Positions 10,553-62,518 are shown, numbered from the stretch's first letter. The stretch is 64,000 nucleotides of DNA from a virus (IMGVR_UViG_3300033067_001661:64001-128000); one strand, 5' to 3'. Numbers and translations are program-made. Notes: a model not told the origin generated them from the sequence alone.

Positions 10553-10948
10553 TCATCTAGCTCCCCTTCTTGCTATAAGTTCCTGCCTAGAAGGGCCAAC
10601 GCCAATGAAGCCAGAAGCAAGTCCGGCAATATGGCACCACGCCTTAACGGAACGTTCCATCTCAGCGTCAGTCATATCGTCATTCATGATCAACTCAGGA
10701 TCCCTAAGAATAGGAGAGTTTGCTGAGAAAACTCCATTGATTTGAAGTCGCTTATAAGCAACCTCGATATGCTGAGGAAGACAACCGATAGTGTCGGCAA
10801 TATCCGTCAGCTTATTTGAAGGTCGGATAAGCTGTGCAAGACAGATAGCGACACCAAAGCCGCCGTCCCTCTCGTCAAGACTAACCTCATTTGTATTCCA
10901 GTTATCGCCGCAAACAGTTCGAACAACTTTTTCGTAATGCGCTTTCAT
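10553..10948 (-). CDS. hypothetical protein (possible wHTH)
   Basis: 131 aa; LTDIADTIGCLPQHIEVAYKRL is HTH-like. Confidence 0.5.
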   Translation of the reverse strand: MKAHYEKVVRTVCGDNWNTNEVSLDERDGGFGVAICLAQLIRPSNKLTDIADTIGCLPQHIEVAYKRLQINGVFSANSPILRDPELIMNDDMTDAEMERSVKAWCHIAGLASGFIGVGPSRQELIARRGAR

Positions 10949-10997
10949 TTACTTCTTCCAAAAGGAACAATCTTGAGAAGCTGCCACGCTAGCAACT

Positions 10998-11633
10998 TCA
11001 ATGAACTCTTGTTATCGCATGAGGAGTACTTTCGACCCAACCATGATGCGATATTTCTATAAACACAGCTTTTTCTTGCAAATCGTAAATAGAACCTACT
11101 CCAGAATAGGTCAAGCCTGAGCGAACTCCGCCAGTAAGTTCATTTAGAATCGAAGAAACCGGACCTTTCGCTCTCACCTCTATGGATTCGCCTTCAGCAG
11201 CAACTCCGATCTTGCCTATATCCTTCAAGAAATGTTTAGAAGATTGTCCTCTATACAATTTGAAAGATCCGTCTTTTGTTGTAAAGATTTCCCCAGGAGC
11301 TTCATCGCAACCAGCAAGAATACTACCAAGCATAACCGCATCCGCTCCGGCAGCAAGAGCTTTTACAATATCACCGCTATTCGTAATTCCGCCATCAGCA
11401 ATAATGCCAACTTCAGGAAAGCCTTCAATCTCAAGAGCTTGTCGAGCATTAATTATTGCAGAAAGTTGAGGCACTCCATGACCAGTAACTATTCTTGTAG
11501 TACAAACAGAATTATGAACAGCAATTCCTTCAATATTATAGGAATGATCGTCTTCTACCTCGATATCAAAGACTTCTCCGCTATATTCTAGAACCTTGAT
11601 TTCGGAAATTTCAATTAGTGTAAACTTTTTCAA
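10998..11633 (-). CDS. guaB: split-intein C-half fused to C-terminal part of IMP dehydrogenase/GMP reductase
   Basis: 41 aa IntC ending VFDIEVEDDHSYNIEGIAVHN, then SVCTTRIVTGHGVPQ, IIADGGI, GDIVKALAAGADAVMLG, YRG, GGVRSGLTYSG. Confidence 0.92.
   Translation of the reverse strand: MKKFTLIEISEIKVLEYSGEVFDIEVEDDHSYNIEGIAVHNSVCTTRIVTGHGVPQLSAIINARQALEIEGFPEVGIIADGGITNSGDIVKALAAGADAVMLGSILAGCDEAPGEIFTTKDGSFKLYRGQSSKHFLKDIGKIGVAAEGESIEVRAKGPVSSILNELTGGVRSGLTYSGVGSIYDLQEKAVFIEISHHGWVESTPHAITRVH
11511..11633 (-). mobile_element. split intein C-fragment (IntC, 41 aa)
   Basis: block F VFDIEV..HSY, block G VHN followed by Ser+1; TTG start overlaps the methylase TGA. Confidence 0.9.
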
Positions 11634-12652
11634 TTTTCAGTTCCTGCAAAAATATTAGATTCTTCAGTTTTAGAAGAATCATTTTTTTCAGCATATTGTT
11701 CCAAGTGCTTATCTAAGATATTTTTGATAGCAAAACGACCACGACCATACTTGTCTTGCAATATTTTTGCTATATCTTTTTTCTTGGCCTTAGTTGAACT
11801 CATTTGAATGTAATCAAGACATATAGATTTTGCGTCTGCATCAGTTATTTTTTTACCTTGATTAACGGGAAGAATATTTTCTACCTTTTTCATCATCTTA
11901 AGGTCTGAACCAAGTTTAATTTCCTTAAGTTTATCTATATGATAATCATATGATTTTTTATTCATTTCATAACCACAAACACTTCTTCCAAGCCTTGTTG
12001 CGATATATGCAGTTGTAAAATTACCCATAAAGAAATCACACACCATGTCTCCTTCATTAGAAGAATACATGATTATCTTGCGGATTAATTCTTCCGGAAG
12101 TTTATTTTGATTTTTCTTTTGATTTGGAGCATAATCTCTATTGATTGCGAAAACATCTTCAAGATCTTGATACAAAAGAGATCCGCCTTTAGAATCTTTT
12201 TCCTGAGAACCAAAACGACAATTAAGATTAAAGGTAGGAGTTGATTTACTAGACTTGCTGTAATACAAAACATGATAATGTGAAGTTACAAATTTCTTCT
12301 TTGTATTAACTCCAAAATTATATTTCCAAATAATATGATTTATTTCATGAAGGCCTAAATTATGAGCAGCGTTTAAGACGTGCCTCAATTTACTATGCCC
12401 CATAATAACATACATGGAACCGTTTTCTTTTAATACTCTTTTTGCCTCGGCTAACCACAAATGAGTCCATTGTTCATAATCATCAGGAGCCTCTTTATAT
12501 CCTTGAATAACGTTGCTTGAGTCTCTTTTGTAATGCTTGTTAAAACCAGTTTCTCCTATACCGAATGGTGGATCAAAAATACCAAGATCAACTGAACCAT
12601 CCTTAATTTTTTTTTCCTTGTCTATGCAATCTTCTGAATAAATTCTAATCAC
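11630..12652 (-). CDS. site-specific DNA methyltransferase (N6A/N4C, beta class)
   Basis: DPPF motif near the N-terminus, SNEGDMVCDFFMG SAM-binding motif downstream. Confidence 0.88.
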   Translation of the reverse strand: MIRIYSEDCIDKEKKIKDGSVDLGIFDPPFGIGETGFNKHYKRDSSNVIQGYKEAPDDYEQWTHLWLAEAKRVLKENGSMYVIMGHSKLRHVLNAAHNLGLHEINHIIWKYNFGVNTKKKFVTSHYHVLYYSKSSKSTPTFNLNCRFGSQEKDSKGGSLLYQDLEDVFAINRDYAPNQKKNQNKLPEELIRKIIMYSSNEGDMVCDFFMGNFTTAYIATRLGRSVCGYEMNKKSYDYHIDKLKEIKLGSDLKMMKKVENILPVNQGKKITDADAKSICLDYIQMSSTKAKKKDIAKILQDKYGRGRFAIKNILDKHLEQYAEKNDSSKTEESNIFAGTEN

Positions 12653-13344
12653 AATTCTTCTCCCATCAACATTCTATATTGCTGTTCTATACAACCCTCT
12701 TGACATTCAATGAATCTAGCGTTTTGTTCTTCAGCAGATACAGCATGATACTGAGGCTTCATCTTTTGGAGGTCTTGTTCACTTATTTCCAAATAAGCCA
12801 AACAATCTTCTTTATTAGGCATTTGTATCTGTATTTGTCCAATACCGTCATGCAATGGTATAAGATTTTGTACTTGTTTCATAGACAACAAATATATACC
12901 CGAACCAACAATGCTCTTCTCATTAATGCAAATGACCCATAAATAATCAAACGCATTATTGTTGAAATTTTTACTATTTTTGGTATTTACCAGTTGAATC
13001 TTCGTGGCCTTTGTTCTACCTTCGCCTCGCTTGCGTTTTCTGGAGAAGATTTCTGATTTTGTCGATTTTATACTAACTCTTTTGCCGTAAATTTCTGCGT
13101 CATGCGAAAGACCTTCATGTTCTGTTATCTTAAGCGTTTCTGGACTAAACTTCTTTCTAAGAGCAAAATTAAAATAATCAGGAGCATGCATTCTGTACTT
13201 CAAAGATGAACTTACTACAGAAGGCGTCATTTTCATTGACAGATAAAGAGCTTCTTTTATCTTGGATGCATTCCTGTTCATAAATTTAGCTATTTCATCC
13301 ATGTTTTTACCTTCAATTTCAGGCTGTATAACTAACTGATCCAT
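12649..13344 (-). CDS. putative PD-(D/E)xK restriction endonuclease
   Basis: HDAEIYGKRVSIKS candidate active site; GTGA-coupled to the methylase. Confidence 0.5.
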   Translation of the reverse strand: MDQLVIQPEIEGKNMDEIAKFMNRNASKIKEALYLSMKMTPSVVSSSLKYRMHAPDYFNFALRKKFSPETLKITEHEGLSHDAEIYGKRVSIKSTKSEIFSRKRKRGEGRTKATKIQLVNTKNSKNFNNNAFDYLWVICINEKSIVGSGIYLLSMKQVQNLIPLHDGIGQIQIQMPNKEDCLAYLEISEQDLQKMKPQYHAVSAEEQNARFIECQEGCIEQQYRMLMGEEL

Positions 13345-13347
13345 ACT

Positions 13348-14280
13348 CTATTTATCCTTTGATAATTCAACAACTATTTTATCTAAAATCACAAAATTGC
13401 TGTTCTTTATTTCACTTTCCCAAATATACCACATTTTGTACCCGTACTTCTCAGCGAATGCTTTCTTTTCTTCGTCTCGTTGTACCTTAAACTTTTGTCT
13501 TTCACTGAGTTTTCGCTTACCACTTTCATTACCATAAATAAGTGGGTTTCCATGCCAATAATCACCCATCACTTCCAGTAAAATATCGTCGCCAATGATA
13601 AAATCATACTGATACTTTCTATGTAGAATTTTACTGTATTTATACTTTATGTTTCTTCTGATCAATTCTTCTTCAACAATCTTTTCTATTGAAGTTTTTA
13701 GACCTTTAGACTGCTTCTCAATAGATTTTATTCCCTGCTGCTTAAGCCTTTCTAAGGCCTCAGGATGGTCCTGAAGATATTGCTTATTTTTGCGACTAAT
13801 AGTTTTTCTTGCTTCATCAGTATGGGTTTTGTTGTAAAAAGGGTTCTTAAATCCGGTAACAGAATCCGATATCTTTTGTTTGATTTCTTTGGACTCTTGC
13901 TCTGTATATGTTTCCCACATATTCTTTTGGAAGAAGTAATTCTTTTCGCCCGTATTCATTCCTGTTTTAGAGTCACGAATCTTGTCAATAGATTCTTCTG
14001 AATGCTTCTTCCCGTAAAATGGGTTTCTTTTGCCCAAAGATCTACAATAAAAGCATTCATATTTCTTATTTAAGGGAGAAGATTTTCCGCTATAAAGTGA
14101 TATTTGATTGTAATTCGTGCAGCCTATATTTGAACAGTAAACGTTACATCTTTGTCCGTATATTTTAGAACCATCTACTCTATCTCCATTTGATAACAGA
14201 TAAATACATCTACGACCGTTGAGTTTTTTCTTTTCAATAATCTGAGCATCGTTTTGACAAAGTACAATCTTGTTTATCAT
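13348..14280 (-). CDS. NUMOD3-repeat Vsr/DUF559-like (EDxHD-type) homing endonuclease
   Basis: repeats GKRNPFYGKKHSEES / GFKNPFYNKTHTDEA; YDFII..LEVMGDYWHG..RDEEK..YIWESE; start at ATG 14280 after GGAG. Confidence 0.85.
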   Translation of the reverse strand: MINKIVLCQNDAQIIEKKKLNGRRCIYLLSNGDRVDGSKIYGQRCNVYCSNIGCTNYNQISLYSGKSSPLNKKYECFYCRSLGKRNPFYGKKHSEESIDKIRDSKTGMNTGEKNYFFQKNMWETYTEQESKEIKQKISDSVTGFKNPFYNKTHTDEARKTISRKNKQYLQDHPEALERLKQQGIKSIEKQSKGLKTSIEKIVEEELIRRNIKYKYSKILHRKYQYDFIIGDDILLEVMGDYWHGNPLIYGNESGKRKLSERQKFKVQRDEEKKAFAEKYGYKMWYIWESEIKNSNFVILDKIVVELSKDK

Positions 14281-14341
14281 AACCACTCTCCAAACTAGCA
14301 CTTCCAACGCCTAGTTTTACTGAGATGGCTGATAAGCTCCT

Positions 14342-14650
14342 TCATTCTTTATTTATTTTTAGCAGGAAATATTCAGGAGACAAGTCTTTGGCTCTGATCC
14401 ACTCCGCATACTCATTTATGTTTTCATCATTTATAATGTCCTTATATTTCTTATGCAAAACATAATATTCATGATTATCAGTTGACTTTATACCGTTGAT
14501 GGAGATTAGTTTCTTGTTTTCCTGTCTTACCATTTTACCAACAACTTTTTTATATCTATTGCGATGAGTAAGAACTTCTTCTCCAACCTGTATTTGGTCT
14601 ATGTTTTTAGAACCATTTTTAGTTATTACTTTATTATCGCTGGTAAAACA
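14342..14650 (-). mobile_element. split intein N-fragment (IntN, 102 aa)
   Basis: Cys1 CFTSDNKVITKNG, block B STDNHEYYV, WIRAKDL, then a stop codon. Confidence 0.9.
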
Positions 14651-15226
14651 TCCAGAACCAATACCAACTTTTACACAATCAGCGCCAGCAGCAGCAAGAT
14701 CAACAGCACCTTCCGGTGTTGCAATATTTCCTGCTATAATTGTAGTATTAGGTATTTTTGACAAAGCCTGAACAGTTTCGATAGACTGTTCCATATGACC
14801 ATGAGCTACATCTAAACAAATTATTGCTTTTGTTGGGAACTTGGGACTAAATCCATTACAAATATTCTCCGCAAATTTTATCCACTTATCTCCGCAACCA
14901 ACACTAAATGCAGTATGCTTGCATGATTCATGTACTTTTTCTATCTCTTTTTTATAATCATCGATGGAGGAATAAAAACGATGCAAAATACCAAGACCCC
15001 CATGATCGCACATTGCTTTTGCCATCTTGGAGCCAGTTACAGTATCCATATTGGCGCTGATAAACGGGATATCTAAAGATACTCCTTCAGCAAGATGAGA
15101 GACAAGACTAATACGACTGTCCATTCTTGACTTGAATGGAGACCTTTGCGGCTTTAGAAGAACGTCATTGAACGTCAACCACGACGAAGGCCAATATTGC
15201 TCACCAGCAGCATTCTCAAACTTCAT
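14342..15226 (-). CDS. guaB: N-terminal part of IMP dehydrogenase/GMP reductase fused to split-intein N-half
   Basis: LTFNDVLLKP, PFISANMDTVT, GGLGILHR, DVAHGH, AGNIAT, VKVGIGSG, then CFTSDNKV... intein; no CBS domains. Confidence 0.92.
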   Translation of the reverse strand: MKFENAAGEQYWPSSWLTFNDVLLKPQRSPFKSRMDSRISLVSHLAEGVSLDIPFISANMDTVTGSKMAKAMCDHGGLGILHRFYSSIDDYKKEIEKVHESCKHTAFSVGCGDKWIKFAENICNGFSPKFPTKAIICLDVAHGHMEQSIETVQALSKIPNTTIIAGNIATPEGAVDLAAAGADCVKVGIGSGCFTSDNKVITKNGSKNIDQIQVGEEVLTHRNRYKKVVGKMVRQENKKLISINGIKSTDNHEYYVLHKKYKDIINDENINEYAEWIRAKDLSPEYFLLKINKE

Positions 15227-15238
15227 GTTGCTTATTCC

Positions 15239-15658
15239 TTACTCGGGAGTTACAAGCTTCAATCTATTGATTGCCTCGGATTGGGCAGCATTAGGAACAA
15301 TGATATCAGGCTTACTCTTGGCCTTATCTTCCTGCTTCTTGCGCAAATCGTCAACAACCTGCTTTGCAAGCTCTGGGAACTTCTCATAAGCCTCTTTGAG
15401 GGTTTCACTCTCGATTGGGAATCGAACTTCTTGAGGACGAACATCTATAAGCATTGGTCGTCCGTCAGGGCCAGGGGCATGAACACCAACAGGAATAAGA
15501 ATAACTCCAAGATGGACAACTCTAGGTTCTGGCTCTTTAAGCTCAGCAGTCATCTGCTCGTCCGTAGGTGTCATTCCGCTTTCTGCGTCAACAAGAGTCA
15601 ATCTTTCGATTCTTTCACCGTCTGGTCCAAAAAAGTTCTCTACAGTTCTAATCAGCAT
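15239..15658 (-). CDS. hypothetical protein
   Basis: 139 aa ORF with AGGAG SD. Confidence 0.6.
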   Translation of the reverse strand: MLIRTVENFFGPDGERIERLTLVDAESGMTPTDEQMTAELKEPEPRVVHLGVILIPVGVHAPGPDGRPMLIDVRPQEVRFPIESETLKEAYEKFPELAKQVVDDLRKKQEDKAKSKPDIIVPNAAQSEAINRLKLVTPE

Positions 15659-34215: not shown

Positions 34216-35196
34216 TCAAAACTCCTATTACTTCTTCTTCTCTTATAAGGCGGTTCTTCGCCATATTCAAATACTCTTGTTTGCCATCTATTCCAATGAA
34301 CTTCCGCCCATTTTGCAAGGCTATAACACCTGTCGTACCTGAACCACAGAAAATATCAAGAACCACGCTTTTGTCAACTTCATTTGTTTCGCAACTACAA
34401 GTTTTCAACCATCCGACAGTCTTTGTATCAGTTAGATGCCTTCCCGAATCCCTATTTGCAAAACCCTTCTTATCAACCTTATTGTGTATGCCAGGACGAG
34501 TTGAATAGCGAGTTTTCTGAACTTGCCTTTCATAAGGAGAGCCACACGCCCTGCAACAACCATGACCGCTAGTTGAAGCTAAAACACAAGGTTCAACCAA
34601 ACCTTGAGGAAAGACAGCAAAGTGAGCGCCCTTAAAAGACGCAACAGGAACGGTCCAAACGTCCCTTTTGATACGTCTCTTAAAAGAACCGTCCGCATTG
34701 CGTTCAACAGCATTCTCTTTTATAGACTCTTGATCATAATAATAGTTTTCAGACTTACCAAGAAGAAATAGATATTCATGCGAAGAAACTGGCCTATCCG
34801 TTACGCCTCCAGGAAGGGGATTTGGTTTGGCCCAAATTATGTCGCTTCTCAAAAACCAACCGTCTTTTCTTAAAGCAAAAGCGAGCATCCAAGGGATTCC
34901 CAAAAGGTCTCCCTTTTTATATCCTTCGCCGGAAGCTCTTGCGTAAGTATCGCCTATATTAAGCCATACAGTTCCGTCATTTCTAAGAACACGTTTAGCG
35001 GCAGAAAACACGCTAACAAGCTTAGCTATATACTCGTCAGGAGTCTTTTCAAGACCAATCTGATCTTGAAAATCATAATCTCGCAACTGATAATAAGCTA
35101 ATAGGGCGGAGAAGTCACAATAGCATGAACGCTATTGGGACTCATTCCGCCCAACACTCCTTCCGTATCACCGCATAATAATTCATAGTTTGCCAT
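34196..35196 (-). pseudogene. N4C/N6A DNA methyltransferase interrupted by a stop and frameshift at SPPY (pseudogene or recoded gene)
   Basis: ATG 35196 reads MANYELLCGD..VHAIVTSPPY then TAG at 35098-35100; another frame continues YYQLRDY..GTVWLNIGDTY..AHFAVFP..VLDIFCGSGTTG. Confidence 0.8.
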
Positions 35197-53958: not shown

Positions 53959-54807
53959 TTAACTAATCCTGTTTTCCTCAACAGTATTTACTGTCTTTTT
54001 ATTTTCCTCAATTCTCTTGGATCTTGGAATATAATCGTCAAATATATTAGAAACGGCAGATATCCTTTGTCTTGCGTAATTAACATCGGATTCAGAATTA
54101 TCTATACCAATGTAATTTCTGCCAAGAACTTTAGCCATCAAACCTGTAGTGCCAGTTCCCATAAACGGATCAACAACTGTATTCCCTCTGTAAGAAAATA
54201 GCTTAATGACCCTTCTTGCTAACTCTTCAGGGAATGGCGCTGGATGACCATTTAGATTCTGAGTTTCTGGTTGAATAAACCATGTTGAAAAAGTCCAGTT
54301 TTGGAACTCTTCATTTGTCATATCAGAAAGCTCAGGGTCTCCTTCGAGTTTCCAACTACCCTTAGACCAAACCATAATATACTCATGATTTCGTCTAATA
54401 GCAGGATTAGAGCAAGACATATAAGAACCAAAAGCAGTTGCCCTGCCTGACCAGTTCTGCTTATACCAGCAAATTTCGGTTCTATATTTAAGACCTACCT
54501 CTCTACCTACATTGATAAGGTCACCCGCGATAGGTCTCATATATTCGTCGTCGTCTTGCCTATTTCTAACAGAATCAATATTGATTACAAGTCGGCCTCC
54601 GTCAACAAGTATTCTCTTGCATTCAATAAATATCTTCTTTAGCCAATCAACATATACCTTATATGGATCGTCGTCATTACGATTACGATACCCTTCAAGC
54701 TGAATATTATAAGGCGGAGAAGATAAAACAAGATGAACACTCTCGTCAGGTATCTTTTTGAGACCGTCCAAAACATCGTCCAAAATAATTGTGTTCAACA
54801 AGCTCAT
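53959..54807 (-). CDS. site-specific DNA methyltransferase (N4C-like, beta class)
   Basis: SSPPY, HPAPFPEEL, VVDPFMGTGTT. Confidence 0.92.
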   Translation of the reverse strand: MSLLNTIILDDVLDGLKKIPDESVHLVLSSPPYNIQLEGYRNRNDDDPYKVYVDWLKKIFIECKRILVDGGRLVINIDSVRNRQDDDEYMRPIAGDLINVGREVGLKYRTEICWYKQNWSGRATAFGSYMSCSNPAIRRNHEYIMVWSKGSWKLEGDPELSDMTNEEFQNWTFSTWFIQPETQNLNGHPAPFPEELARRVIKLFSYRGNTVVDPFMGTGTTGLMAKVLGRNYIGIDNSESDVNYARQRISAVSNIFDDYIPRSKRIEENKKTVNTVEENRIS

Positions 54808-54809
54808 GA

Positions 54810-55568
54810 TTACTCCGAGAATATATCTTTTACTACATCTAGTCTTTGCTTTGCTAAAGCAATCGCTTTAGGGTTCTTATCGCTTCCAACAGGGAATCTT
54901 TTAGCCGCTAACGCTGCTTCTAAAAAACTACCGCTACCGCAAAATGGGTCCAAAACTCTATCCCCAGGATTGCTCCATATAGTAACTACTCTCTCCATGA
55001 GTTTAAGAGGCTTTTGAGTGGCATACCCGTTCTTTTCCGGTTCGTTCCTGCATATTGCAGGAATATCAACCCACCAATCCTCAAGAAGCTTACCTCTCTG
55101 TTCATAATGTTCCCAAGGAATTTTTTCTTTCGACCAAGCAGCAGCCCCTCCGACATTCATCTTGGTTTTATATGGAACCCTGGGTTGGTTAAATACATAC
55201 TCTCCGAGTCCATACCATAGGATCGTATGATGCTTCCTAGGGAGCCATCTCTTAGCGCTTGCAGGATTACTAAAGCCCCATATAATTTCGTTCCTGAAGC
55301 TATCCCTTCCAAAAATCTTATCCATTGAAACTTTGACATAATGTATCGCCTTGTAATCCATATGAACTACAATATTCGAATCTTTCTTCATGAGCTTTTT
55401 GATGGCGCTTAGCCTATCAGCCATATAAGAAACAAACTCGTCAAAAGACGAACCAACTCCATAGTATTCATCTTCAGATTCACAACTATAAGGCGGATCT
55501 AGATACACTAAATCAACAGGCTCCGTTACCAGCCCAAGACAGTCAGTATTATGAAGTTCATATTTCAT
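54810..55568 (-). CDS. site-specific DNA methyltransferase (N6A, beta class)
   Basis: YLDPPY, FRNEIIW, YATQKP, VLDPFCGSG. Confidence 0.92.
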   Translation of the reverse strand: MKYELHNTDCLGLVTEPVDLVYLDPPYSCESEDEYYGVGSSFDEFVSYMADRLSAIKKLMKKDSNIVVHMDYKAIHYVKVSMDKIFGRDSFRNEIIWGFSNPASAKRWLPRKHHTILWYGLGEYVFNQPRVPYKTKMNVGGAAAWSKEKIPWEHYEQRGKLLEDWWVDIPAICRNEPEKNGYATQKPLKLMERVVTIWSNPGDRVLDPFCGSGSFLEAALAAKRFPVGSDKNPKAIALAKQRLDVVKDIFSE

Positions 55569-60528: not shown

Positions 60529-61422
60529 TTAATTCCTCGAAACAAAAGATATCTCGTTTATCGCTAAACTCTTGAGTAACGCATCTAATTGCGGGTCATA
60601 ATGTTTCTCTGTATACGGAGACATCTTCTTTGTTATTTCTTTGATTCTCTCAATAAACGCCGGTCCTGATTTCGTTGCGTCCTGATAAAAGCTCTGTATC
60701 ACTTCTCTGCTCTCTTTAGGAGACAAGCCCCTATTCGAAAGCAACCATGAAAAACAAACAACAATCCCATAGTTCATAAGAAATGCGACACCGCCAGAGT
60801 TGTAATACTCTTCAATCTTCGATAGATCAATTCTGTTTCCAAGCGCAACGCCTTGAACTTCCTTATGCTTATTGAGACTTACAAACTTCTGAGAAGCCCT
60901 ACGGGAACAGAAGTCATACAAATCAAAAGCCTCAACATTTAGCTCCTCTTCAATAAACCATTCTATGTAGGTCTTTACTATTGAATTTGATGGCGGAGCG
61001 GATAGCCTTCTTTCAAGTTCCTCTTTGATTCGCTTTGTAAAACGAGCATGAATCGCAGGACCAATTGTAACGGCAATTTTATCTCCGAGGCGCTTGTCTT
61101 TCTTTATACAGAGATAGCGAAGATAATTGAACATCGCTTTATCAGTCCAAAGATCTGGATGAATAGTATTAAAGCCCTTTGAGGTCTTTATATCTTTCCA
61201 TTTACAAACGCCAGTCTTCTGGCCGCTAGCCTTCTTAGTAGTTGGTCCGTCTACAATTTCAAGCTCGTCTTCTCCAATGATATCGAGAAGGCTATTCTTC
61301 TTCTTAGCTTTAGGACTAATCCCCTTACTGGTGTCCTTTTGACTTTGCGCAAGAATATCACCCATAAAGTCTTTTGTTTCTGTCTGCATTTTCTTACCTC
61401 TTTTGGGCATCGCTTTGACCAA
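60529..61422 (-). CDS. hypothetical protein
   Basis: long ORF overlapping neighbours; start uncertain. Confidence 0.55.
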   Translation of the reverse strand: MVKAMPKRGKKMQTETKDFMGDILAQSQKDTSKGISPKAKKKNSLLDIIGEDELEIVDGPTTKKASGQKTGVCKWKDIKTSKGFNTIHPDLWTDKAMFNYLRYLCIKKDKRLGDKIAVTIGPAIHARFTKRIKEELERRLSAPPSNSIVKTYIEWFIEEELNVEAFDLYDFCSRRASQKFVSLNKHKEVQGVALGNRIDLSKIEEYYNSGGVAFLMNYGIVVCFSWLLSNRGLSPKESREVIQSFYQDATKSGPAFIERIKEITKKMSPYTEKHYDPQLDALLKSLAINEISFVSRN

Positions 61423-62518
61423 TAATCAAATATTCTACACCTGACGAGTTTTCGGCTGAACGATACTTGTAATCGTACTGCATTGTCTTAACTATTACGT
61501 TCTTCCTAAACTCGCTTACCAACTCTTTAATCGTCTCAATTTTGGCCCAGCTACTATCATTGTAACTAATTGCCAAAGTTGCATTTGAATCCAAACTATC
61601 TAGTAACTTTCGGAAATGATCCTCATAAGTTTTAGCTTTCGAAAAAGACTTCGAAGCTGTCTTTAGATATTCAATATCTTGGAAAGATTTCCTAGCCAAG
61701 TATTCTTCTAAAAACTGATACATAAAAGCGTAATCGCTTTGCTGTCCACCATATGGAGGATCAATGTAAATTAGATCAAAGCTACGACCACTACCAACCG
61801 AATTACAAAAATCAAAGACATCATTATTGAAGAACATCGACGGAGGCCCTTCGCAAGGAAAATAGAAAGGCTTCATTGTCTTGAAATTCATTTCACTGTT
61901 ATCGTTTCTCTGATGCTGTAAACGATGTTCAAGAGATGCAATAATCTGTCCGCTATTAAGCCTACCGCCTACAAAGCAATGAGACATAATGAACTGCATC
62001 ATTGTCGAATGAGCAATACAGGCTCTAACATGATCATTTACAAATCGCTCTTCTACGTTTGCGAAGTAATTGTCAATAAAAACAGCTTCCGCACTAGTTA
62101 AACGAGAACCTGCGTGAGTCTTTTCCATAAAGGAATCAGACTTCGAATTCTTATTAGATAAGAGGAATTCCCAATCTTCGTCGGAAATCTTACTATTCCA
62201 ACCCTGCGTCAAAGAAACGCCATTCATATAAGAAGAACGAAGCAACTCATTCGAATAAACTTCTTTGCCGAACTTCTTAAAGAAAGCTCCAACAACAGCA
62301 GAGCCAGCAAACAAATCAAGTACCGAGCTAAAAGAATCAAAAGAAACTTCGCTATTTAGCTCAATAGCAATATCTGCCAAAATTTTGCGTTTGTTACCGA
62401 CATATGGATTACTCAAACTATTGAAATCAGCTTGAGTATTCAAAGCCTTTTCAATAAAAAGCTCTTCTTTGGTTTCGGCAAACAAGTTACCAAACTGTTC
62501 TCGATTTTTACGAGCCAT
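61394..62518 (-). CDS. DNA adenine methyltransferase (D12/FokI-like)
   Basis: YVGNKRK, LDLFAGS, LIYIDPPY, ISYN. Confidence 0.88.
   Translation of the reverse strand: MARKNREQFGNLFAETKEELFIEKALNTQADFNSLSNPYVGNKRKILADIAIELNSEVSFDSFSSVLDLFAGSAVVGAFFKKFGKEVYSNELLRSSYMNGVSLTQGWNSKISDEDWEFLLSNKNSKSDSFMEKTHAGSRLTSAEAVFIDNYFANVEERFVNDHVRACIAHSTMMQFIMSHCFVGGRLNSGQIIASLEHRLQHQRNDNSEMNFKTMKPFYFPCEGPPSMFFNNDVFDFCNSVGSGRSFDLIYIDPPYGGQQSDYAFMYQFLEEYLARKSFQDIEYLKTASKSFSKAKTYEDHFRKLLDSLDSNATLAISYNDSSWAKIETIKELVSEFRKNVIVKTMQYDYKYRSAENSSGVEYLIIGQSDAQKR

Follow-up and report, generated by a model that had tools for sequence, protein, structure and literature searches.

The window analysed here is a stretch of 64,000 nucleotides corresponding to bases 64001–128000 of the virus record IMGVR_UViG_3300033067_001661 in IMG/VR, and since the record has 333,623 bp and is estimated to be 66% complete the source virus is a giant phage. 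Positions 10998–15226 of the window hold five genes arranged head to tail, all on the minus strand, where a gene of the IMPDH/GMP-reductase family appears to be broken in two by a split intein, with a homing endonuclease gene and a putative restriction-modification (R-M) pair placed between the halves. The genes and their parts are the following:

14342–15226, minus strand: N gene, 294 amino acids (aa), stop codon at 14342–14344
14651–15226, minus strand: N-extein, 192 aa ending VKVGIGSG, IMPDH/GMP-reductase family, lacking the CBS subdomain
about 14651–15000, minus strand: divergent patch in the N-extein, similar to the one in the C-extein
14345–14650, minus strand: N-terminal intein half (IntN), 102 aa, with Cys1 and the block B STDNHEYYV
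13348–14280, minus strand: homing endonuclease gene, 310 aa, with two NUMOD3 motifs and a predicted C-terminal Vsr-like (EDxHD) domain
12649–13344, minus strand: open reading frame ORF231, 231 aa, predicted PD-(D/E)xK type II restriction endonuclease
11630–12652, minus strand: DNA methyltransferase gene, 340 aa, predicted beta-class N6-adenine type, DPPF, motif I DFFMGNFTT, GTG start
10998–11633, minus strand: C gene, 211 aa, TTG start
11511–11633, minus strand: C-terminal intein half (IntC), 41 aa ending ...IAVHN
10998–11510, minus strand: C-extein, 170 aa beginning SVCTTR (Ser+1 and the catalytic-loop Cys), stop codon included
11040–11470, minus strand: divergent recombination patch in the C-extein, a co-conversion-like tract
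11511–14650, minus strand: the whole putative mobile insert, 3140 bp, with IntN, homing endonuclease, restriction endonuclease, methylase and IntC

The initial annotation had described an N gene made of an IMPDH-type extein and IntN, a C gene in which IntC ends in VHN followed by SVCTTR, and an AT-rich gap of 2.7 kb with three genes, and all of this holds when the sequence is read and the halves are compared with Pfam. The gap between the N and C genes (11634–14341) is 2708 nt, and the insert has a G+C content of 0.328 against 0.38–0.41 in the flanks. The genes are tightly packed, with 3 nt between the stop codon of the homing endonuclease gene and the start of ORF231, a GTGA overlap of the ORF231 stop with the methylase GTG start, and a TTGA overlap in which the last two bases of the IntC TTG start are shared with the methylase TGA stop, as had also been noted. 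No boundary repeats or target duplications are found at the ends of the two-gene R-M cassette, and an Rfam scan of 10800–15400 found no family. The locus has no nucleotide match in a phage GenBank collection, where no phage with such a fractured gene was found either.

The insertion is defined by an IMG/VR contig (L001) that shares synteny and about 90% nucleotide identity with the window and carries one uninterrupted gene of 362 aa, reading ...VGVGSG-SVCTTR... at the site. Two collinear blastn alignments of about 6.4 kb each (window 21000–14652 with L001 2227–8575, and window 11511–5002 with L001 8576–15086) flank one clean block of 3140 bp, which spans the Cys1 codon to the terminal Asn codon at GSG/SVC, and a single exact block between collinear alignments indicates a precise insertion rather than a chance arrangement. 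Around the junction the empty site of the L001 type reads GGTTCCGGT on one side and TCTGTTTGTAC on the other. The joined exteins of 192 and 170 aa give 362 aa, the length of the L001 protein and the length that the initial annotation had arrived at (about 362 aa), and the uninterrupted L001 protein aligns across the junction without a gap.

The N gene matches the Pfam IMPDH profile over residues 17–196 (E 6e-39, profile positions 2–181), and the C gene over residues 42–205 (E 2e-49, profile positions 178–345). The N-extein is 79.7% identical to residues 1–192 of the L001 protein and the C-extein 83.5% to residues 193–362, with a ratio of nonsynonymous to synonymous substitution rates (dN/dS) of 0.09–0.13 between the window and L001. 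The gene is the single IMPDH-family gene across the whole 334-kb record. Its product had been named an IMPDH, and the family assignment stands but does not extend to IMPDH over GMP reductase, because all NCBIfam scores fall below their cut-offs. IMP_dehydrog gives 259.9 bits (cut-off 481.5) in two stretches, with no CBS domain, and GMP reductase PRK05096 gives 232.5 bits (cut-off 397) as the sole end-to-end NCBIfam match. Homologues in jumbo phages are annotated as GMP reductase, and the host enzyme may thus by its sequence be a GMP reductase rather than an IMPDH.

The extein end ...VKVGIGSG is followed by the intein start CFTSDN... and further on by the block B ...STDNHEYYV, and IntC ends ...IAVHN immediately before SVC. 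Pfam finds weak Hint_2/Hint matches in the N gene from residue 193, and the C-terminal end of Intein_splicing in residues 5–41 of the C gene; a search of the PDB by sequence with IntN gave nothing meaningful. When a search was limited to the intein region at least 49 protein clusters with the same intein were found, nearly all of them IMPDH N-halves of 273–301 aa, and three being proteins of 494–504 aa. One of the latter (P0044) has a contiguous mini-intein of 140 aa at residues 188–327, and IntN aligns to its residues 188–284 and IntC to residues 294–327. Since both halves map as adjacent parts onto this contiguous intein they are complementary parts of one 140-aa Hint domain, where a failure to align in this way would have spoken against a split intein. 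Contiguous forms are found likewise in L068, L077 and L078. Cys1, Phe2, the TH and T..HE.YV blocks and the HN/S junction are kept in at least 90% of the 49 relatives, and dN/dS is 0.014–0.057 for IntN and 0.02 for IntC, showing very strong purifying selection. The net charge is +4 for IntN and −7 for IntC.

A likeness to the intein IMPDH-1 had been proposed earlier and is seen in the alignments. The pieces of the published IMPDH-1 are 101 and 40 aa long, against 102 and 41 aa here, its native junction is GGG/SIC, and its fast splicing has been shown experimentally (Pinto et al. 2020, PMC7090010; PMC11168065). The two loci share the host enzyme family, the insertion point G-x-G/S-[IV]-C in the loop of the catalytic Cys, and the residues Cys1, TxxH, HN and Ser+1. 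The IntC sequences are 51% identical (20/39, E 1e-14) and the IntN sequences about 37% (counted by hand against the printed sequence), so the intein is diverged from IMPDH-1. Taken together, the evidence supports a fractured gene with a split intein, and by its sequence the intein adds a new allele to a family of the IMPDH-1 type that is known and well populated. The earlier claim of a new split-intein allele is thus correct in that the allele is diverged, but the intein as such is not rare, as it forms at least 49 sequence clusters, of which this allele is one. From the homology to IMPDH-1 we infer that the two halves are trans-spliced.

The opposite view, that the halves are no longer spliced and that the locus is a decaying insertion, is very improbable. 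It could draw on a distant relative (L085:5458–6663, IMGVR_UViG_3300025844_000379; at 65% identity still the closest IntN relative in IMG/VR) whose intein is interrupted by an in-frame stop five codons from its start (GIGPGCFIA followed by the stop), with no C-half found within 6 kb downstream; this may represent a dead copy, an error of sequencing or a genuinely dispersed arrangement. In the window, however, both halves are intact with all catalytic intein residues present, dN/dS is low in the intein halves (0.014–0.06) as well as in the exteins, the identical locus is found on many contigs from different samples, and no other gene of the family is present in the record.

The first gene of the gap encodes, as judged from sequence and structure model, a free-standing homing endonuclease with NUMOD3 motifs and a Vsr fold of the EDxHD family. 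Gene callers use the ATG at 14280 in related contigs, giving 310 aa, and the mechanical open reading frame from a TTG is 319 aa. Two NUMOD3 stretches are present in the N-terminal part (Pfam E 1.3e-17), and NCBIfam gives a weak match to Vsr (E 0.003, residues 192–299 of the 319-aa frame). The AlphaFold model is confident for residues 194–310 only, where the predicted local distance difference test (pLDDT) is about 80–88, and this domain matches E. coli Vsr (1cw0, Z 10.9, 112 aa, root-mean-square deviation (rmsd) 4.2) and I-Bth0305I (3r3p, Z 10.6, 94 of 98 aa, rmsd 3.4, 26% identity) well above the remainder of the fold list. D226, E236, D240, H243 and D269 are invariant among the three homologues aligned, and a GDYWHGN stretch is similar in sequence to the F-W-H stretch of Vsr. 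The gene has a dN/dS of 0.087. The PDB searched by sequence with the C-terminal domain gave nothing meaningful, and no paralogue was found in the genome. I-Bth0305I is the prototype of the EDxHD family, whose first prediction came from fractured genes (Taylor et al. 2011, PMC3239194; PMC2677866), and both enzymes combine NUMOD repeats with a C-terminal Vsr-fold domain. I-Bth0305I is however encoded in an intron and has NUMOD2, whereas the present gene is free-standing between split-intein halves and has NUMOD3, the catalytic domains being 26% identical.

Comparison with related contigs supports that the insert is mobile as a whole. L023 has the same five-gene layout, with 88–95% nucleotide identity in the insert and 54–73% in the flanks, and the identity jumps sharply at the intein ends (at about 14672 and 11524). 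On either side of the site about 350 bp of the N-extein and about 450 bp of the C-extein have 58–83% identity to L001, against about 92% further out. In L029 and L036 an insert identical to that of the window is joined to an L001-like C-extein, and window 11040–11470 compared with L029:7875–8305 shows that two strains otherwise 100% identical differ by a patch of about 450 bp with 58–87% identity. The end-points of recombination thus vary, as expected for homing with co-conversion. All genes of the insert are under purifying selection. Between the window and L023 the synonymous divergence (dS) is 0.16–0.21 for ORF231 and the methylase and 0.63–1.1 for IntN, the homing endonuclease and IntC, which suggests, from these sequences, a later exchange for the R-M cassette than for the remaining parts of the element.

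ORF231 had been annotated as a putative restriction endonuclease, which its predicted structure bears out. It has no match in Pfam, PHROG, NCBIfam or PADLOC, and no relative in the phage GenBank collection. A word-based homologue search of 5.8 billion proteins returned ORF231 itself and one 75% relative only, and an exhaustive HMMER search of 1.84 billion representatives returned 22 family representatives, making it a near-orphan. The PDB searched by sequence with the family profile gave nothing meaningful, and matches came from fold comparison alone. The AlphaFold 2 model, made with the family alignment as input, has a pLDDT of 90.6 and matches ThaI (3ndh, Z 10.1, 175 aa, rmsd 4.0) and NaeI (Z 9.3, 144 aa, rmsd 3.7; Foldseek E 6.9e-4), followed by NhoI, DpnI, SwaI, PvuII, I-Ssp6803I, SfiI and EcoRV, type II restriction endonucleases take all of the first eight places, and nine of the top ten fold matches are restriction or homing endonucleases. 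Residues conserved in the family are E75/E77, D82, S91-x-K93, N120, D133 and Q170. A homodimer model reaches an ipSAE interface score of 0.79, against 0.00 for the best of three controls, a mark reached in calibration by 20 of 30 proteins solved as homodimers and by one of 23 solved as single chains; the prediction used an alignment built by us, and resemblance to dimers of restriction enzymes already solved may account for part of the value. At least 94% of contacts are shared between the runs, the partner pLDDT is at least 80, and the interface is symmetric and formed by helices 35–64 and 199–231. ORF231 has a dN/dS of 0.10–0.21. It is confidently predicted from these models to have the fold of a type II restriction endonuclease and to form a homodimer, and is further predicted to represent an undescribed small family of restriction enzymes.

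The methylase has a Pfam match to PF01555 (E 2e-36) and a PADLOC match over its full length to the Type II methyltransferase PDLC03296 (273.6 bits), and its nearest solved structure is CcrM (6pbd, E 5e-20). The adenine-type motif DPPF is found in 120 of 120 relatives, and dN/dS is 0.09–0.11. A dead methylase was considered on account of the GNFTT motif and rejected, since the motif is kept in 119 of the 120 relatives and is therefore a trait of the family and not decay. At least five further PF01555 matches are present in the genome, among them a tandem pair, a gene broken into two pieces and a remnant full of stop codons, and those in the window lie at 54073–55517, 34256–35080 and 61310–61777 (G000 118073–119517, 98256–99080 and 125310–125777); they point to a heavy investment of the phage in DNA methylation.

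A DNA methylase is directly adjacent to the ORF231 relative, which is 28–75% identical, in seven of seven independent contexts. Apart from the window the following were examined:

L028: fractured IMPDH with no homing nuclease, ORF231 relative and methylase
L039: contig with a T4-type portal gene and otherwise unrelated neighbours, ORF231 relative and methylase
P0053 contig and L037/L038: cassette adjoining a resolvase and an IS605-type gene
L041: cassette between recA and the replicative helicase
L043: reversed order, methylase before nuclease
L042: C5-cytosine methylase as partner, from an unrelated family

Between cassettes the methylases are 67–80% identical and the nucleases 28–40%, and a diverged nuclease beside a conserved methylase is the usual asymmetry in R-M systems. 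Both genes are under purifying selection (dN/dS 0.09–0.21). Since every context of an ORF231 relative has an adjoining methylase, with varying order and family, the sequences and the model support that ORF231 and the methylase constitute an R-M system; this linkage is the strongest argument for such a system, being the pattern expected for a nuclease that needs any cognate protection, and it would not be expected if ORF231 were a subunit or regulator belonging to one given methylase. As in the orthodox type II systems of the EcoRV/PvuII/NaeI/ThaI lineage, a small PD-(D/E)xK protein predicted to be a symmetric homodimer is encoded by a gene that adjoins, and here overlaps, a beta-class N6-adenine methylase gene. 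The present cassette differs from these in that ORF231 has no sequence relative in Pfam, NCBIfam, PADLOC or the PDB and has S-x-K in place of (D/E)-x-K, and in that the genes are phage-borne, lie inside a homing element and include no controller protein.

The L028 arrangement could instead mean that ORF231 is a second or replacement mobility nuclease, which would cut unmethylated phage genomes lacking the element and let repair copy it in, and that the methylase serves self-immunity only, in a homing system gated by methylation. In L028 the relative of ORF231 (ORF227) and the methylase have a dN/dS of about 0.10–0.11, the lower dS of the cassette in the comparison with L023 suggests independent movement, and the PD-(D/E)xK homing endonuclease I-Ssp6803I is found among the fold matches with a Z of 6.4. 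Such a system nevertheless seems unlikely, as the same two-gene cassette is found outside fractured genes in L039, L041, L043 and the P0053 contig, and ORF231 is small and predicted to be a symmetric dimer, without the extended DNA-binding modules typical of homing nucleases of phages. L028 is moreover a single contig of 3.5 kb.

Fractured genes with split inteins and a free-standing endonuclease are known (Dassa et al. 2009, PMC2677866), and the IMPDH-1 locus has a Vsr-like nuclease gene between its halves as is the case here. The gap of that locus is however about 1 kb and holds one gene, against 2.7 kb and three genes in the window, and the text of PMC2677866 contains the string 'methyl' zero times and does not mention an R-M-like cassette. 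An IMG/VR scan with the IntN alignment gave 36 loci, 33 of which could be classified. An EDxHD nuclease is found in the gap of 16 of the 33, where the gap is 850–1095 nt, and seven have a different gene of 341 aa with a weak HNH-type PHROG match; three are contiguous mini-inteins, and the last seven are split without a nuclease, one of them keeping a nuclease remnant. No gap in these loci exceeds 1.1 kb, and none of the 33 has a methylase or a relative of ORF231, in agreement with the earlier remark that the R-M-like cargo is unusual. No paper describing R-M genes between split-intein halves was found. The element is thus of a known kind, the fractured gene, and the R-M cargo makes it a new composite.

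The composite layout is present on at least 13 contigs from many samples and is stable in its own lineage. Other contigs show reduced forms. L028 has the R-M pair between the intein halves and no homing nuclease gene, and L024–26, from three samples, have only a 131-nt 3' remnant of the homing nuclease gene and the last 36 methylase codons, which still overlap the IntC TTG start. The natural states of the site are accordingly empty, contiguous mini-intein, split with nuclease, split with nuclease and R-M, split with R-M only, and decayed remnants. Of all that was found, this nearly complete series at one intein site has the greatest value, and it bears on the origin and persistence of split inteins, on the uptake of cargo by homing elements and on the selfishness of R-M genes in competition between phages.

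We consider it likely that the locus is a three-layer selfish element, placed in the codons for the active-site loop of a gene of the IMPDH/GMP-reductase family in a giant phage. In the first layer IntN and IntC would associate after translation, aided by their opposite charges, and trans-splicing would join GIGSG to SVCTTR to give the 362-aa enzyme, as expected from the fast-splicing homologue IMPDH-1. In the second layer the NUMOD3/Vsr-fold nuclease would cut alleles without the intein during co-infection, and recombinational repair would copy the insert together with variable stretches of the neighbouring exteins into the recipient phage. The third layer would be the R-M cassette, with the nuclease gene before the methylase gene in translational coupling, which lies between the homing endonuclease gene and IntC and would be carried along by homing. 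The methylase would mark the DNA of the phage itself, and the dimeric PD-(D/E)xK enzyme might cut unmethylated DNA of the host or of rival phages and so favour carriers of the element. Translation of the C-half is probably coupled to the cassette, because its TTG start overlaps the methylase stop. Decay has proceeded in relatives by loss of the homing nuclease, or of this nuclease and the R-M pair, leaving a bare split intein.

Some of the observations weigh against this three-layer element. Promoter-like matches in the locus are no more frequent than expected by chance. The Ser of ORF231, in place of the acid of the canonical (D/E)xK, is found in at least 90% of its family, and the methyl-dependent enzymes NhoI, DpnI and Eco15I are also among its fold matches. 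Motif I of the methylase is unusual, with D-x-F-x-G-N-F-T-T in place of G-x-G, and most of its relatives have no ORF231-like partner, as in L040, so that the methylase may serve an independent function. That the element gains from the R-M pair is purely something that we infer. Several of these points would also fit a different arrangement, in which the methylase is the functional cargo, with an anti-restriction or epigenetic role, and ORF231 is a non-cleaving DNA-binding or regulatory partner built on a nuclease scaffold. Orphan methylases of the family are very common in phages, with 1520 relatives, many of them on large phage-like contigs, and the further PF01555 matches in the genome are in line with such a role. 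D82, K93 and other polar residues are however invariant or nearly so in a family with 24–40% identity (one 76% relative excluded), one ORF231 relative is paired with an unrelated C5 methylase and the gene order varies, and restriction enzymes of the Cfr10I/NgoMIV group are active with S-x-K, which makes a non-cleaving ORF231 quite improbable.

A stronger version of the three-layer element would make the R-M pair an integral and self-maintaining layer that spreads with the element, able to replace the homing nuclease in eliminating or converting element-free genomes in co-infection, as in the L028 state, and locked in by the start of the essential C-half inside the methylase stop. This version is doubtful; if true, it would mean that a viral restriction enzyme serves in nature as a gene-drive nuclease. 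The carriage of cargo has a known parallel in the islands of homing endonuclease genes (HEG-islands), where such genes move the cargo next to them from phage to phage (Barth et al. 2023, PMC10448857). In both cases phages that are otherwise much more diverged share a block of homing nuclease and cargo at about 90% identity, and tracts of exchange extend into the neighbouring genes. The present element differs by its discrete boundaries, which are the intein ends, by a self-contained R-M cargo in place of essential phage genes, and by the split intein as carrier. For biotechnology the locus offers a split intein that is a diverged allele of the widely used IMPDH-1 and could be orthogonal to it, and a candidate type II restriction enzyme family that has no described relative together with its presumed cognate adenine methylase.

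Two hairpins were considered in the locus. One upstream of the homing nuclease gene has a z of −1.7, which is not significant. The other (11658–11680, minus strand) lies inside the 3' end of the methylase gene, 25 nt upstream of the IntC start, and has a perfect stem of 8 bp followed by a U-rich tract (z −3.7, with 1 of 200 shuffles folding equally well); L023 has it unchanged whereas L028 and L024 lack it, and it was dropped as a part of the mechanism. T4-like capsid and portal Pfam models have no match in the record, and none in control genomes either.

Some of the related contigs carry further features. The 341-aa gene found in seven of the gaps (L070:6385–7410, and L071–73, L075, L083 and L084, some of these contigs being 308–501 kb) has no significant Pfam match and a weak one to an HNH-endonuclease PHROG (E 7e-4), and may be a second, undescribed type of homing nuclease for the same site. 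An independent decay of the nuclease is seen in L056:6322–6500, where about the last 57 codons of an EDxHD nuclease (HGDFWHGNP...) are left between the intein halves. In the ENA contig of P0053 and in L037:1942–3123 the cassette lies beside a serine resolvase, an IS605 OrfB/TnpB-like gene and a NUMOD3/TnsA-like nuclease, suggesting that R-M-like cassettes of this kind have other vehicles. Finally, the T4-type portal gene of L039 (6051–8582, 843 aa) has a Pfam match to Intein_splicing, which points to an intein in the portal protein.

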